A DNA stretch of 64,000 nt from Candidatus Bathyarchaeota archaeon (GTDB taxonomy: Archaea; Thermoproteota; Bathyarchaeia; Bathyarchaeales; Bathycorpusculaceae). The stretch's first letter is position 1; each line of letters opens with the position of its first letter. The position numbers and the translations under genes were made by a program. Where the stretch lies: assembly GCA_963717465.1 (NCBI GenBank), contig OY970340.1, positions 928,001 through 992,000 of the forward strand, read 5' to 3'. The notes below the pieces were generated by a model. It ran no database searches, was not told the origin of the DNA, and saw nothing but the letters and a program-made list of their open reading frames with translations. Shown piece by piece: positions 21,042 through 58,204 of this stretch.

Positions 21042-22717
21042 ATGTCCATCTTGGAAACTAAAGATCTTGTCTATACGTATCCTGGTGGTCAAAAGCCATC
21101 AATCGACGGAGTCTCCATAAAAGTGAAGAAAGGAGAATTCGTTTTGATTACTGGTCCAAGTGGCTGCGGGAAAACGACTTTGTGCCGATGTTTTAACGGT
21201 TTAATTCCTCATTTTTACCAAGGCGAATTACACGGCGAAATCCAAGTAACAGGATTAAACATTACTGAACACCCTACTCAAGAATTAGCACGGCATGTTG
21301 GCTTGGTTTTTCAAAATCCAGAAAATCAACTATTCGCTTTATCCGTCGAAAAAGACGTCGCGTTTGGCATGGAAAATCTCGGCGTACCCCGAAACGAAAT
21401 GCGCGAAAGAGTTGATTGGGCATTAAACATGACTGGAATCGCTAATTTACGCGAAAGATCGCCGCATGAGGTTTCTGGGGGTCAACAGCAACGTGTTGCA
21501 ATAGCATCGGTTCTTGCCATGAAACCGGAAATAATCGTTTTAGATGAACCCACATCTTTTCTTGACCCATTAAGCGCTGAAAAAATCTTTGAAGTTATCG
21601 CTGAACTTAACAAAAAGCAAGGCATAACAGTCATTCTAGTTGAGCATAGACTAGATTTAACGGCAAAGTACACTGACCATCTGATAGTGATGAATGAGGG
21701 AAAGGTTTGCTCTAGATGGAAATCCCCGAGAAATCCTTAATTCAGAGGAAACACGCCTAATCGGCGTCGGAATACCTAAAGCAACTCTCCTCTATCAAAT
21801 GCTAAAGAAAGACGGGTTAGAACTAGGAAAAACAATCCCGTTATCTTCTGAAGAATTGGCCGACCAACTGAGGGAGGCTTTGAGAGCATTGATTGAGGTT
21901 GAAGACATCCATTTTTCTTACCCTAGTCAAGTCGAGGCGCTAAAAGGCGTTTCATTGACTATAAATGATGGTGAATTTGTTGCCATCATGGGACAAAACG
22001 GTGCTGGAAAAACAACACTCGTTAAACACTTTAATGGTTTACTCAAGCCTTCACAAGGAAGCATCCGCGTTGACGGCGTTGAAACAAAAAAATCAAGCTG
22101 TTGCAGCGTTGTCTAGAAATATCGGTTTTGTTTTTCAGAATCCAGATCATCAGTTGTTCAGCGAAACCGTCGAAGAAGAAATAGGGTTCGCACTCAAGAA
22201 TTTTGGTTTTGAGCCAGAAACCATTGAAAAACAGATAACTTGGGCTCTAAACCTATTATCGTTAACGCAGTACAGGAAGACTTCACCGTTTATGCTCAGC
22301 GGGGGCGAACGCAAACGCGTTGCACTAGCCTCAGTGTTAGCTTGGGATCCTAAAACGTTGATTTTGGATGAGCCAACCATAGGCCAGGATCATGAACAAA
22401 AAGAAAAATTAAGGCAATTTATCATTCAAATGCAAACTCAGAAAAAAACAGTTGTTATAGTTACTCATGATGTGGAATTTGTTGCCGAATGCAACCCCCG
22501 TGTAATTTTCATGAAAGAAGGAAAAATCATCGGAGACGGCATTGGAAAAGAAATGCTTACAAATCAAGAACTACTTTCGCAATCATACATTGTTTTACCG
22601 CAAATAGCCCAAGTATTCAAAGATTTATCATCTTTAGGACTTCCAAGTGATATTATCGATATTTACGAAGCCAAAGATGTAATTTTGAAGGCTCAGGAGA
22701 GAAGAAGACAAAAATGA
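21042..22717 (+). CDS. ecfA: ECF transporter ATPases (two ABC domains; two genes or one fusion, obscured by frameshifts)
   Basis: GPSGCGKTT / GQNGAGKTT Walker A, FQNP, SGGQ/SGGE, LDEPT twice. Confidence 0.85.
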
Positions 22718-23511
22718 GCATTTTTGACGGTTTAAAATTCCGCAAAGTCTCCTCGCCTATTCATAATTTAGATCCTCGAATAAAATTCATTTATGTTATC
22801 GTAGTTTTTGTTGCTGCAATACTTTTTCCCGAGTTACTCCCGTTACTTGTTCTCTTTATAATTCAAATTCCGTTTGTTTTTATTGCTCATGTTCAAAAAC
22901 AGTGGGTTCGTTCGTTACGCGGGGCGGCGTTCTTAGCTGCTTTCATTTTCACAATCAATGTCGCTACAAGCTACTTCATAAATCCAAGTAATTTCATAGT
23001 GAATTACGCCTTATCCATCGAGAATGCAGCTGCAATGACTATGCGTTTTGTCGTGCTCGTTGAGTCTTTCTCAGTTTTCTTCTTGACAACATCCCCAGAT
23101 CATTTAGGCTTAGCATTGGAAAATTCACGCATGCCTTACGAATTCGCCTTTGCCTTTACAACAGCAGTTCGCTTCGTTCCAGTTCTCGCTGAGGAAGCCC
23201 AAACAATAATGGATGCCCAAAAAGCAAGAGGGTTAGAAATGGAGAAAGGCAATCTAATGAAAAGAATCAGAAATTACATTCCAGTGCTCATACCCTTAAT
23301 AGTCAGCGCCATTCGCAGAAGTTTAGAGCTGGCTGAAGCAATGGAGTCACGTGCCTGGGGCGCAACTAAAAAACGCACAAACTTATACATGCTTAAGCTT
23401 CACAAGGGAGATTACGCGTTAATCGCCATCACAATTGGAATTTTGGCCTCTGCTATTTACGTCTACTTATACGTGCATATCCCACTTATCAGCCACCTGC
23501 TTGGTTACTAA
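22714..23511 (+). CDS. ecfT: ECF transporter transmembrane component
   Basis: LDPRIK, RFVP, AQKARG, AEAMESRAW. Confidence 0.9.
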   Translation: MSIFDGLKFRKVSSPIHNLDPRIKFIYVIVVFVAAILFPELLPLLVLFIIQIPFVFIAHVQKQWVRSLRGAAFLAAFIFTINVATSYFINPSNFIVNYALSIENAAAMTMRFVVLVESFSVFFLTTSPDHLGLALENSRMPYEFAFAFTTAVRFVPVLAEEAQTIMDAQKARGLEMEKGNLMKRIRNYIPVLIPLIVSAIRRSLELAEAMESRAWGATKKRTNLYMLKLHKGDYALIAITIGILASAIYVYLYVHIPLISHLLGY

Positions 23512-23647
23512 CTCACAGTTTAAATGCTGCTCGATTCTCAACAAAATTGGACTAATATTAAATATCCCTGAAGAATTTATGATAATCAGAACTAATTGAA
23601 ATAATAGCCCAAAGACCTTTAAAAAGAACAAATGAAGGCTTTCAAGA

Positions 23648-23654
23648 GAGGTGA
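23648..23654 (+). promoter_or_regulatory. Shine-Dalgarno GAGGTGA for selD
   Basis: GAGGTGA 8 nt upstream of ATG 23663. Confidence 0.75.
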
Positions 23655-23662
23655 ATCCTAAA

Positions 23663-24682
23663 ATGAACTATAGACTTACAAAAGCTGTACCGGTACATGG
23701 ATGAAGCTGCAAGCTCCCACAGTACCAGCTGGATAAACTTCTCGTCAAAGCCGGCGTGTCAATAAAACTTGGCGGCGAGTTGTTAGCTGGACCTTGGGAG
23801 AACTCAAGCGTCATGAAAATTGCAGAAGACCTTGCTTTACTGAACACTCTGGATTTTTTCACTCCGATAGTCGACGAACCCGAGGTACAGGGCAGAATCG
23901 CAGCAAACAATGTTACCAGCGACATTTACGCGATGGGCGTATCGAAAATAGTAAACGTTTTGTCAATTATGGGCTTTCCAGAGGAAATGCCAAACAAGTT
24001 AGCTGTAGGAATGCTGAAAGGATTCGCCGATTTTTGCCGAGAAATTGGTGCGCCTCTTGTTGGTGGGCACACAATTCGAAATCCATGGCCTATTTTGGGC
24101 GGTGCGGCGACCGGTGTTGCCAGCCCAAATAAAATTGTTTATACACGAGGTGCAAAACCTGACGATTTGTTGGTTTTAACTAAACCTTTGGGAATTCAGC
24201 CTGCTATGGCGGCTTATCGAATGTGGAAAGAGAAAACAGGCAGGGAATTGCTAAGTGATATCCCGAAAAAAGTGGTTAAAGATGCAATCTCTGGGGCGAT
24301 TGAAGTAATGACATCTTCGAATAAACCTGTAGCGGAGGCAATGCAGCAGGTTCCAGTCCATGCTGCTACTGACATTACGGGTTTTGGTTTGAAGGGTCAC
24401 GCTGAAAACATGGCAAAACTTGGTCAAGTAAATATTGTATTCGATGAATTAGCAGTTATCCGTGGTACGCCTGCTTTGGCTGAGGTGCAGGGTTATCCTT
24501 TGCTTAAGGGTGATGCAAGCGAGACTGCAGGAGGCATGCTTATAGCTGTAGGCAAAGGGGATTTAGATGATTTGCTTAAAGAGTTAGAAAAACGTAAGGT
24601 TAGACACTTTGAAGTTGGCCGTGTAATGAAGGGTCAAGGTACAGTGAAAATAGGTAAGCAAGTGAAAATTTTAGAAGTTTAA
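23663..24682 (+). CDS. selD: Selenophosphate synthetase (selenide, water dikinase), a selenoprotein with UGA=Sec at codon 14 (23702-23704); 339 aa
   Basis: ATG 23663 is in frame with ORF 23756..24682 and reads MNYRLTKAVPVHG(TGA)SCKLP; also DFFTPIVDEP..QGRIAANN.TSDIYAMG, GGHT, LTKPLG, TDITGFGL.GH, ETAGGML. Confidence 0.95.
23714..23800 (+). promoter_or_regulatory. Candidate Sec-recoding stem-loop immediately downstream of the selD UGA
   Basis: Hand-folded nested pairs CUCCCA/UGGGAG, CCAGCU/AGCUGG, CUCGUC/GGCGAG, GCC/GGC; not computed. Confidence 0.4.
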
Positions 24683-24741: not shown

Positions 24742-26940
24742 GTGCCAGTTTCTCGCTGCCCATATCTACTTATAATGTGCGGGTTGCCTGCTTCAGGCAA
24801 AACAACCATATGCAGAAAGGTGGCTGCGATTCTCGAGGACAAACATGGCTTACCAACTATGATAATCAGCTCTGACGATTTCAGGCGTATGGTTACGTAT
24901 TCTAGTTCGGGATTTCAGCCTGAAAAAGAGGCGGCTATTAAGCTTCTTTTTGAAAGAGCAATAAGTACTGCCTTGGAAAATTCTTTTTTAGTAATTTGCG
25001 ATGACATGAACTATTATAAGTCGATGAGGGCAGACTTAGGCAAAATCGCTAAAAACTCAAATTCAGATTACGACATTGTCTTTGTCAATACTCCTGTTGA
25101 CTTAGCGTTAAAATGGAATCAGGAGCGGGGCTTTACAGTCCCTAATTCGCTTATTGAGGAAATTAACCAAAAACTAGACGCGCCCAAAGGCGATTATAAA
25201 TGGGATACTGCAATGGCCACCGTTGATCCGAGCAAACAGAGTTTAGATGAAATGGCAAACGTAATCGTCGGCGGCATTATTAAAAGATTGGAGAATCCAG
25301 TCAGAAGTAAACCCAAAAAGATTGTCGAGGACGAAAAATCATTAAGAGCACGGGGTATCGAGAGAGAAACTCGGAAATCAATGATGGAAGTTATGACGCG
25401 GTTCAAAAATCCAGATTTGGCTATTTCCCTCTCAAAGATCCGCAAGGAAGTAGTTAAGAAAGCCTTGCTGGAAGGGGTTCAACCCACAGTTGCTGTGGAA
25501 ATGTTCCTAAGAGGTGCTGATGAAGTCACCAAAGGTTTCGCCATGCCCGAGACGAAAGGGTTGATTTCAGTCCATGTAGGCTTATTTGGTCACGTGGATC
25601 ACGGCAAAACCATGCTTGCTAGACGATTAACAGAGAAGCCTTCAACTGCAGCGTTGGATAAAGCTCCTGATTCAGCGCGGCGTGGTATGACCTTGGATAT
25701 GGGTTTCTCAGCTTTCTGGCTTGACAATTACATGGTGACACTTGTTGACCTGCCGGGGCATTTTAGCTTAATTAGGCATGCAGCTGCGGGAGCCAACATT
25801 ATCGATTCTGCAATACTTGTTGTCGCGGCGGATCTTGGCTTGCAGATTCAAAGTGTCGAGCATTTTTCAATAATTAAAAACTTGGGCATAAAGGATCTTG
25901 TCGTGGCTTTAAACAAGATTGATGCGGCTTCTCCTGACAGAATCGAGGAAGTAAAAAAGAAAATCGCGCTTATGCTGAAAGGAACACGATACGAGAACGC
26001 CAAGATAGTTGGAGTTTCAGGCTTAACAGGCGCTGGCATGGAGGAATTAAAGAATGAAATCAAGATGTCACTTAAGCCTCCCGTTAGGCAATGGGTTGGG
26101 CCTTTTAAGATGCCCATTGATCACGCATTCATAATCGCTGGAGTCGGCACCGTTTTAACTGGAACAATTCATCGTGGAAAAGTAAAACTGAAGGATACTG
26201 TTGAGATCAAGCCGATCGATAAGACTGGGCAAGTCAGGTCTTTGAGGTCTTTTGGTGAAGAAAAGGAAGAAGCAATCGCTGGTGACCGCGTTGGAATGGC
26301 TGTTAAGGATATTAAACCTGATGATGCTCACAGAGGTTTCATCGCTTGCACCCCAGGGTCAATTAAGTCTACCCAGCGTATGCTTGTAGAATTTGAAATG
26401 GACAAGTATTACAAGCGTTCGATGGAGCCCAAAAGTGGAGTAACAGCATTCGTTGGGTCCTATGAAGTGTTAGCAACTGCTACACCTGGAACACTTGAAA
26501 ACTCAAAATTCGTTGTTAAACCTTCAATCAGAGACGGAGAAAAATGCACAATTTATCTGGAACTTAAGGAGCCAGTGGTAGCGGAAAGCGGTGACCGTGT
26601 TCTACTGTTAAATACCGGGCTTCAAGCACGTGAATTCCGAATAATCGGCGGAGGAAGAATCATCGAAACAGAGAAAATACCTGAATTCTTCTCAAGAAAA
26701 GTCAAATCAGGAACCGTGAAGGAAAAGCAAACAGACAACAACTACATCATAAGCGGTTTAGCCAATGCTGAAGGCGCAGCTGTAAAGTATACGAAGAAGC
26801 AGATCACGACTGCAGCTGGCGTAAAAGGGGAAATTATCTCTCCTTCAAAATCAAGTGGAGATGTCGTTGCCACGTTTATCCAGCCGGTTCAGGTAGGCGA
26901 AAAAGTGTTTCTCGTTAAATATAAGAAACTGCAGGTTTGA
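24742..26940 (+). CDS. pstK-selB: Fusion of O-phosphoseryl-tRNA(Sec) kinase (aa ~1-265) and selenocysteine-specific elongation factor SelB (aa ~268-732)
   Basis: PSTK: CGLPASGKTT, SDDFR, ICDDMNYYKSMR.DL, YKWD, IERETRK. SelB: GLFGHVDHGKT, STAALDK.P.S.RRGMTLDMGFSAF, LVDLPGH, NKID, PIDHAF..AGVGTVLTGT, AGDRVG. Confidence 0.92.
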   Translation: MPVSRCPYLLIMCGLPASGKTTICRKVAAILEDKHGLPTMIISSDDFRRMVTYSSSGFQPEKEAAIKLLFERAISTALENSFLVICDDMNYYKSMRADLGKIAKNSNSDYDIVFVNTPVDLALKWNQERGFTVPNSLIEEINQKLDAPKGDYKWDTAMATVDPSKQSLDEMANVIVGGIIKRLENPVRSKPKKIVEDEKSLRARGIERETRKSMMEVMTRFKNPDLAISLSKIRKEVVKKALLEGVQPTVAVEMFLRGADEVTKGFAMPETKGLISVHVGLFGHVDHGKTMLARRLTEKPSTAALDKAPDSARRGMTLDMGFSAFWLDNYMVTLVDLPGHFSLIRHAAAGANIIDSAILVVAADLGLQIQSVEHFSIIKNLGIKDLVVALNKIDAASPDRIEEVKKKIALMLKGTRYENAKIVGVSGLTGAGMEELKNEIKMSLKPPVRQWVGPFKMPIDHAFIIAGVGTVLTGTIHRGKVKLKDTVEIKPIDKTGQVRSLRSFGEEKEEAIAGDRVGMAVKDIKPDDAHRGFIACTPGSIKSTQRMLVEFEMDKYYKRSMEPKSGVTAFVGSYEVLATATPGTLENSKFVVKPSIRDGEKCTIYLELKEPVVAESGDRVLLLNTGLQAREFRIIGGGRIIETEKIPEFFSRKVKSGTVKEKQTDNNYIISGLANAEGAAVKYTKKQITTAAGVKGEIISPSKSSGDVVATFIQPVQVGEKVFLVKYKKLQV

Positions 26941-27818
26941 GCGTTAAAGACTTGACTGAACGTACACGTTTTGGTCCAGCCGGTGTTCCTCCACCTTTTC
27001 GGATTCTTAGAGCCAAGTTATCGGATGTTCCTGGGCTTCTGCGGGAAGAGGGTCTTGATGCGTTTGAGTATCAAGCTTCACGTTGGGGTGCGACACCGCA
27101 AATCAAACAAGAGGATGCTGAGAAATTGGGCCTTGAAGCAAAGAAAAACGATGTCAAGCTCAGCGTTCATGGGTCCTACTTCATTAACCTATCTGGAAAA
27201 GATGATATCGTTGAAGCAAGCAAGCAACGTTTGATTGCTGGTGCAACCGCGGCGCAGTGGATGGGAGCATACGTCGTTGTTTTTCACTTGGGTTTTTATG
27301 GCCGATTTGAAAAGAGTTTTGCCTTCAAAAACTGCGTAACCGCTTTGAAAGACGTAAGTCAAACCTTAAAGAGTCTAGGAATCAAGGTGAAGCTCGGTCC
27401 AGAGACGATGGGCAGAAAATTTCAAGTCGGATCACTTGACGAAATATTAACGATTTGCCAAGAAGTTGAAGGCACACAGTTGGTTATTGATTGGGGCCAT
27501 CTCCATGCGAGAAATCAGGGCGCATTCAAAAAAATTGAGGATTTCCGATCAGCCGTTGAAAAAGTTGAGTACCAACTCGGAACAGAAGCGATAAAGAATA
27601 TGCACTGTCACTTCTCTAAAATCGAGTTCTCCAGCCAAGGAGAAAAGAGGCATCGAACATTGGAGGAAAAAAGGTATGGCCCAGACTTTGCGTTGCTTGC
27701 TCAAGTGATTGCGGATTTTAATTTGTATCCGACTTTGATTTGTGAAACGCCTCTTTTGGATATTGACGCAGTTAAAATGCGAGAAATTTATGATGGCGTA
27801 CTGAAAGGAAAAATGTAA
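26937..27818 (+). CDS. Endonuclease IV-like TIM-barrel protein
   Basis: RFGPAGVP, SVHGSYFINL, VFHLG, PETMG, IDWGHLHAR, HCHFSKIE, ICETP; 4-nt overlap with selB stop. Confidence 0.85.
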   Translation: MSVKDLTERTRFGPAGVPPPFRILRAKLSDVPGLLREEGLDAFEYQASRWGATPQIKQEDAEKLGLEAKKNDVKLSVHGSYFINLSGKDDIVEASKQRLIAGATAAQWMGAYVVVFHLGFYGRFEKSFAFKNCVTALKDVSQTLKSLGIKVKLGPETMGRKFQVGSLDEILTICQEVEGTQLVIDWGHLHARNQGAFKKIEDFRSAVEKVEYQLGTEAIKNMHCHFSKIEFSSQGEKRHRTLEEKRYGPDFALLAQVIADFNLYPTLICETPLLDIDAVKMREIYDGVLKGKM

Positions 27819-58134: not shown

Positions 58135-58160
58135 TTTTTTACCTCTCAGTTTATGCTTAC

Positions 58161-58204
58161 GGTTCAGCCTTTCGGCCACATCCCAGCGGACATGATTATC
58201 CGCC
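58161..58204 (-). promoter_or_regulatory. Candidate structured 5' leader of rpl15e
   Basis: mRNA strand GGCGGAUA-AUCA-UGUCCGCU then GG-GAUGU-GGCC-GAAA-GGCU-GAA-CC, about 25 nt before the start. Confidence 0.5.

Follow-up and report, generated by a model that had tools for sequence, protein, structure and literature searches.

How a UGA codon at the catalytic position of an archaeal selenophosphate synthetase gene (selD) is decoded, and which RNA signal would mark it for selenocysteine (Sec) insertion, is the question raised by a locus of Candidatus Bathyarchaeota archaeon. The locus lies in a stretch of 64,000 nt (the window; contig OY970340.1, positions 928,001 to 992,000), which was analysed together with the remainder of the genome, its relatives and metagenomic sequences. 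The way in which archaea connect SECIS elements to the ribosome is described as an open question (PMC9622424, PMC9499178), and an organism combining archaeal factors with a signal adjacent to the UGA would offer a simple test of whether a position-fixed structure alone can recode.

The selD frame and the selenocysteine machinery

The selD frame extends from ATG 23663 to TAA 24680-24682, with the TGA at 23702-23704 as its sole internal stop. The features of the gene start are:

23558..23564, + strand: TATA-like box TTAAATA, a putative selD promoter
23648..23654, + strand: Shine-Dalgarno sequence GAGGTGA, followed by the ATG 8 nt further on; complements the 3' end of the genome's own 16S rRNA
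23663..24682, + strand: selD, selenophosphate synthetase, 339 aa with the UGA read through (from the frame and the PRK14105 profile)
23702..23704, + strand: in-frame TGA, codon 14, predicted selenocysteine (TGA in 12 other genomes, TGC/TGT in Cys orthologues)
23711-23713, + strand: Lys17 of U-x-x-K
23756..23758, + strand: GTG, the ORF caller's start, inside the apical part of the stem-loop described below

An earlier note, made from the letters alone, had read a Shine-Dalgarno sequence, an ATG and an open frame through the TGA as a hidden SelD N-terminus missed by the ORF caller. All three elements are present, and the read-through protein matches NCBIfam PRK14105 with 353.8 bits (cut-off 291) over positions 6-345 of the 345 of the profile and TIGR00476 with 246.9 bits (cut-off 125). 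The placing of the TGA at the catalytic position was likewise correct: the motif of the window gene is U14-S-C-K17, corresponding to the UxxK motif given for Sec-type SelD in Table 1 of PMC13188914, and in the ortholog alignment the non-TGA genes encode Cys (TGC/TGT) at codon 14. A start at GTG 23756 would lose U14 and K17, i.e. the catalytic loop, and this codon is probably not the real selD start. The 7-mer TTAAATA is found upstream of 10 of 14 genes examined. The nearest solved structures are human SPS1 (E 1.9e-51) and then bacterial SelD (E 2.6e-28), and every one of the nine selD loci nearest to it on titled GTDB contigs bears the label Ca. Bathyarchaeota, Bathyarchaeia or Bathycorpusculum, so that the class is assigned from the nearest relatives.

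The SelD N-terminus was matched in 95 of 332 genomes of the family, and ten of these, including the window genome, have one TGA there. With three more genomes of the order or class, TGA occupies the same selD codon in 13 genomes and, because 9 + 3 genomes share it with the window, it is neither a chance event nor a single assembly error. The earlier note had also named decay relative to orthologues as a check. Relative to five TGA orthologues, pN ranges from 0.15 to 0.19 and pS, at 0.74-0.79, is close to saturation, so that selD is under purifying selection and gives no sign of decay. Contigs of run X2, mostly from relatives, cover the codon, and no variant at 23702-23704 occurs among 40 of its 238 variant records. 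That the TGA is a sequencing error or a nonsense mutation, and selD broken or starting at GTG 23756, is hardly credible. Indels do occur in this assembly (three of 11 molybdopterin paralogues are frameshifted), one true-looking nonsense TGA exists elsewhere in the genome and all other informative congeners have Cys at codon 14. Against this stand the same TGA in 12 other genomes, all with a PSTK-aSelB gene, the strong purifying selection, the matching Shine-Dalgarno sequence at the ATG and the fact that the gene is the only selD of a genome in which 13 other selenoprotein genes need selenophosphate.

The machinery for Sec synthesis and delivery is complete. The gene downstream of selD is:

24742..26940, + strand: PSTK-aSelB fusion, kinase at about residues 9-241 and aSelB at about 278-732, 59 nt 3' of selD

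selD and the fusion gene are probably co-transcribed. Domain III of the fusion protein is archaeal, and its C-terminus is short and of archaeal type, as it is in 25 relatives; no Pfam winged-helix domain of bacterial SelB was found in the window aSelB. Elsewhere in the genome, SepSecS (488.9 bits, cut-off 224.85) is encoded tail-to-tail with one of two tRNA-Sec genes (71.8 and 61.8 bits, cut-off 47), and the tRNA-Sec fold presents a 9-bp acceptor stem with a U-U mismatch (U6-U67) and a 4-bp T stem. The joining of PSTK and aSelB in a single ORF and the U6-U67 mismatch are the marks of the Bathyarchaeota PSTK-aSelB system, and the fusion is present in 12/12 other TGA-selD genomes (27 hand-picked genomes compared). 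The full machinery, the TGA across 13 genomes, the Cys orthologues and 15 further Sec-type UGAs in the genome together bear out the earlier suggestion that UGA recoding operates in this organism. Given a full-length profile match above the cut-off, a UGA aligned to Cys and this machinery, the window gene is predicted to be a Sec-type SelD that synthesizes selenophosphate, and selenocysteine at codon 14 is very likely. A Sec-containing SelD is in itself ordinary, since it is already a known selenoprotein.

Several observations concern the wider distribution of these genes. A second tRNA-Sec is followed by a second PSTK-aSelB gene (G000:C1:2827363-2829725, - strand; L092), whose GTPase motifs G1 and G3 are altered and whose branch is long. 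The order selD -> pstk/selB is also found in two other genera (G570:C17 and G534:C16; L316, L318), and in G039, G230 and G170 the selD/pstk/selB cluster is accompanied by SepSecS. Within the genus, 73 of 120 genomes have a selD match without a SepSecS match. yqeB was found in 0/120 genus genomes, and selU was not found in the window genome. Cys-type selD often lies beside what we take, from their translations, to be DsrE-like, hydroxyacyl-CoA dehydratase-like and molybdate/tungstate ABC genes (L010-L025, L054-L079). In the genus, selD without SepSecS possibly reflects selenium or sulfur use of another kind.

Predicted helices downstream of the Sec codons

Immediately 3' of the selD UGA, the coding sequence contains the following predicted structure:

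23714..23800, + strand: predicted 87-nt stem-loop within the coding region, starting 9 nt after the UGA, a likely recoding element
23714-23719 with 23795-23800, + strand: basal helix
23725-23731 with 23784-23790, + strand: middle helix; the apical part is variable

The fold has -37.3 kcal/mol, with z of -2.8 and -3.1 and 4 and 0 of 200 shuffles as good, and is unusual against synonymous shuffles (p 0.005), in which codons were drawn uniformly. With a short folding window (42-75 nt after the UGA) the same element looks unstructured (-3.2). The silent sites of six TGA-selD genes of 68-80% identity delineate both arms: in codons 15-27 (5' arm) 10/13 degenerate codons are invariant, compared to 23/170 elsewhere (Fisher p 2e-6), and in codons 41-53 (3' arm) 5/7 are. 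These two silent-frozen stretches pair with each other. As a control, random sets of six Cys selD genes yielded an invariant fraction of 0.08 on average and 0.36 at most.

The basal helix is identical in 8/8 TGA-selD genes of the family, and all six of its pairs are Watson-Crick in 8/9 true Sec genes, a count that drops a tenth pattern match (L229) which is not SelD, and in 0/48 Cys genes. In two distant Sec selD genes (L261, L267), a long stem-loop is built in part from other letters (-48.6 and -41.5; z -4.3 and -3.9). Among more distant TGA-selD genes, eight sequences have a short hairpin from about +7 and L272 has another long stem. The TGA-selD fragments L218 and L220, which bear no taxon label, lack a post-UGA hairpin. 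The metagenomes yielded at least 119 pattern matches, most of them not SelD; at least 18 distinct TGA-selD genes were kept from all sources. Covariation is modest, as 2/20 pairs change on both sides and the score is reached by 13/500 shuffles, a value that related sequences can give without structure. The selD element pairs at 94%, compared to 24-48% for slid controls. Cys selD genes keep 14.3 of the 20 pairs on average because amino acids fix many of the letters; 14/37 of them form the basal pairing by free folding, and their folds reach p<=0.05 against shuffles in 6/37 cases, versus 9/16 for Sec selD genes. Taken together, these comparisons, in which kin do not count as independent, support the predicted stem-loop well as a conserved, Sec-linked feature of selD. 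A leader hairpin upstream of selD was considered as a signal and rejected; it is weak (-7.8) and absent where the selD of relatives directly follows another gene.

The genome's predicted selenoproteome comprises 14 genes with 16 UGAs, the read-throughs having been picked by a coding-score filter. The 15 Sec-type UGAs besides that of selD are distributed over a fused HdrA-MvhD (two), 11 molybdopterin enzymes (one each) and a methyltransferase-like gene (two). At all 15, a hairpin of 30-40 nt begins 6 nt after the UGA. Against synonymous shuffles, the short hairpins reached p<=0.05 at 9/9 HdrA, 8/8 MvhD and 11/11 molybdopterin-enzyme Sec sites; in the same test 2/15 and 0/15 Cys sites did (in total 28/28 for Sec versus 2/30 for Cys). 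A hairpin rule, set after the sites had been seen, matched 1/348 terminal TGA, 2/784 TAA, 0/247 TAG and 2/800 Cys codons. It misses 2/16 Sec codons, and both of these pass the shuffle test (p 0.010 and 0.015). No obvious sequence motif is shared among the hairpins, whose lengths and loops vary. General reassignment of UGA was rejected because 348 long ORFs end in TGA.

The genes concerned present features of their own. The fused HdrA-MvhD (G000:C1:1519920-1522484, - strand; L090) contains two UGAs, each with its own hairpin, kept in relatives. The 11 acetylene-hydratase-like molybdopterin paralogues, three of which are frameshifted in the assembly, have the UGA at a metal-ligand Cys and are accompanied by one Cys paralogue; their TGAs are located in G000:C1 at:

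124642, 132694, 480584, 1134713, 2378454, 2495990, 2799134, - strand: molybdopterin-enzyme TGAs
617083, 1211628, 1822504, 2055182, + strand: molybdopterin-enzyme TGAs

In the alignment this UGA corresponds to the metal-ligand Cys of 2E7Z, at position 138 of the chain as deposited, which we take to be Cys141 in the numbering of the structure paper. A 398-aa gene with two UGAs (G000:C1, TGA 2823619- and 2823439-; L289) has no Pfam match at 1e-3 and is presumably, from its sequence pattern, an MtaA/URO-D-like methyltransferase; its first UGA aligns with Cys in six paralogue matches, making it a candidate new selenoprotein. The acetylene-hydratase-like family is listed with Cys only in the part of PMC10100899 consulted. 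An MttB-family gene (G000:C1:1122407, + strand; L089), with nine close paralogues in the genome, contains one in-frame TGA that was rejected as a Sec codon, the site being variable (R, H, L, T and A in eight paralogues) and devoid of a hairpin; this TGA is probably nonsense or an error.

The same data bear on whether the selD stem-loop, with the UGA still read as Sec, instead serves selenium-dependent control of selD or mRNA stability, or arises from constraint on the encoded protein. Compared with the other hairpins, that of selD is longer and separated from the UGA by 3 additional nt, and part of its pairing is kept in Cys genes, as such a role or origin would allow. Its silent sites, and not amino acids alone, are frozen in Sec genes only, and a helix at the same distance from the UGA recurs in four unrelated gene families, which leaves this explanation very improbable.

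The candidate decoding signal

If the helices are not the essential signal, a SECIS should reside elsewhere on the messages. An eaSECIS pattern was found near 0/13 selenoprotein genes (background 1/200) and an eSECIS-like pattern near 3/13 (background 57/200), neither of them for selD; these patterns are a stricter re-implementation of the published ones, run without a positive control on 13 of the 14 genes. In the flanks of 13 genes (500 nt on the 3' side, 300 nt on the 5' side), neither a common motif nor a match to a published SECIS pattern rose above background, and a shared-word search of the 5' flanks returned promoter and Shine-Dalgarno words only. The Rfam SECIS models have no match in the window. 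A separate Rfam match in the window, at 58156-58203 (- strand), is the eL15-Euryarchaeota ribosomal protein leader (46 bits, cut-off 33.7), here in a non-euryarchaeal genome.

These searches are relevant to a reading in which the UGA is Sec and the stem-loop is only an SRE-like helper, with the essential SECIS elsewhere on the message. Known archaeal SECIS elements are placed mostly in the 3' UTR, from which they act at a distance, an SRE and a SECIS coexist in eukaryotic SPS genes, the window aSelB is devoid of SECIS-binding winged helices and the hairpins differ in length and loop, all of which would fit a helper. The flanks of the 13 genes, in which nothing rose above background, speak against it, as do the mere 59 nt between selD and the next gene, the TGA-selD flanks that differ between genomes and the separate hairpin that hdrA-mvhD provides for each of its two UGAs. 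We regard a helper role as rather unlikely, although it is the most serious of the rivals.

The explanation we favour, and consider likely, is that the selD TGA is decoded as Sec by archaeal-type machinery with the in-frame stem-loop as its signal. Sec-tRNA would be made by PSTK and SepSecS and brought by aSelB to the helix-marked UGA, perhaps aided by the fused PSTK or an adaptor. A stable helix just 3' of the UGA in the A site would hold the ribosome and disfavour the release factor, a slowing of termination that we infer from the SRE precedent (PMC4561486). SelD would then make the selenophosphate used by SepSecS, and therefore its own synthesis would depend on selenium. Whether the stem-loop would act as the sole recoding signal is, in our estimate, an even call. 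No reader domain is evident, because the hairpins have no shared motif and aSelB has no winged helix. The broader proposal, in which archaeal/eukaryote-type factors operate without a UTR SECIS and the only mark of each UGA would be a local helix 6-9 nt further 3', largely independent of sequence, we hold to have about equal chances of being right and wrong. If true, it would represent a decoding mode not described for archaea, with signals ranging from 30-nt hairpins to the 87-nt SelD stem-loop, and a present-day example of the SRE/bSECIS-only state from which the eukaryotic SECIS has been proposed to derive (PMC4561486). It would also inform the proposal of a bacterial-type ancestry for eukaryotic SREs; that proposal took shape on SelD, whose Sec and Cys versions can be compared here within one family. 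In practice, Sec genes are mis-called as truncated, and annotation misses a predicted selenoproteome of 14 genes and 16 UGAs.

Possible origin of a putative selD cassette and comparison with known systems

By RpoB, the genome falls inside its genus (SH-aLRT 99). Among 120 genomes of this genus SelD is found in 83 and SepSecS in 10, and the window genome is the only one with a TGA-selD among 79 congeners whose match covers codon 14. Of the nine other congeners with SepSecS, eight encode Cys there and one is uninformative. In quick trees, one of which left out the partial sequence L277, 47 close Cys selD genes group in a single clade (support 100) nested among Sec genes, and the window selD falls outside it. 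Forcing the window selD with its congeners was rejected (p-AU 1.6e-5), the group having been named after the first tree was seen. The window fusion protein also branches outside the congeners' set. The borders of the selD-pstk/selB pair are:

22714..23511, + strand: ECF transporter T gene (ecfT), left border of the putative cassette
26937..27818, + strand: endonuclease IV-like gene (nfo), right border of the putative cassette

In 4/4 congeners examined, ecfT directly adjoins nfo, with no selD or fusion gene between them. Upstream of ecfT, at 21042-22717, two ECF ATPase genes are spread over three ORFs that overlap and differ in frame; these frame breaks are probably assembly indels. The simplest reading of the trees and borders is that selD-pstk/selB represents a cassette gained or relocated in the window genome, the pair having presumably reached the site as a mobile cassette, and that one Sec-to-Cys change with decay of the stem-loop took place in the ancestor of the Cys clade. 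Alternatively, the window selD may be a retained old paralogue. A metagenomic TGA-selD fragment (L236:3-356, - strand) nests in the Cys clade (118 columns) and its short hairpin differs (-16.8, p 0.005), which points to a possible reversion to Sec accompanied by reconstruction of the signal. If the helix-only proposal is true, the signal could be built anew from other letters upon reversion of a gene from Cys to Sec, as L236 suggests.

With respect to known systems, the protein resembles Sec-type SelD (TIGR00476, PRK14105) in its full-length match, its U-x-x-K at 14-17 and its role in the Sec pathway. Unlike the Sec-type SelD of PMC13188914, it has a Bathyarchaeon as host, a group not among the Sec users given in the consulted parts of that survey, and its candidate signal lies in the coding region. 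A Bathyarchaeota Sec system with the PSTK-aSelB fusion and the U6-U67 tRNA-Sec was reported by Mukai et al. (PMC8762117) and repeated in PMC9499178. The present genome shares with it the same fusion beside selD, SepSecS and the 9/4 tRNA-Sec with the U-U mismatch, and differs in its scattered genes and second tRNA/fusion copy (PMC8762117). The word SECIS is absent from the main text of PMC8762117, and Bathyarchaeia are unmentioned in the consulted text of two later surveys (PMC13188914, PMC11227280). Further background is given in PMC5424206, PMC9723677 and PMC11602143.

The elements resemble the bSECIS as coding-region stem-loops just 3' of the UGA, one per UGA, with an MFE below -7.5 (PMC13188914). 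In contrast to the bSECIS model, about 53 nt separate the SelD loop from the UGA (16-37 in the model), whereas the genome's short hairpins are in range, and no conserved G loop extends across the genome's elements (PMC13188914). A G occupies the first two loop positions in MvhD and not in the commonest molybdopterin-gene loop, and the apical part of SelD varies. A further difference from bSECIS systems is the archaeal-type elongation factor without SECIS-binding winged helices. For SREs, a spacing of 6 nt from the UGA was reportedly found by Howard in 2005. Like the SREs of SEPN1 and SPS2, the selD element is a conserved, putatively readthrough-promoting stem-loop a few nucleotides 3' of the UGA, in a gene family they have in common and at the equivalent place within it, and in a setting of PSTK/SepSecS/EFSec-type machinery (PMC4561486). 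SREs occur alongside a 3' UTR SECIS and in some genes only (PMC4561486), whereas here every Sec codon has a helix and no UTR SECIS was found in the flanks searched. The eaSECIS of Euryarchaeota and the eSECIS-like elements of Asgard archaea lie mostly in the 3' UTR and have GAA_A or AUGA_GA cores (PMC11227280, PMC4989117, PMC9622424); the class of trans factors is the same, but with the strict patterns used these cores were not found here above background.

The element is bSECIS- or SRE-like by position, and is neither a bSECIS by the published model nor an eaSECIS or eSECIS. No description of an in-coding SECIS in Bathyarchaeia was found in the literature consulted, of which figures and supplements could already show hairpins. 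We file the gene as a Sec-type SelD that belongs to the known Bathyarchaeial system and carries a variant, putative recoding signal; new are the long SelD form of this signal, its tie to the Sec/Cys state and the signs of a cassette.
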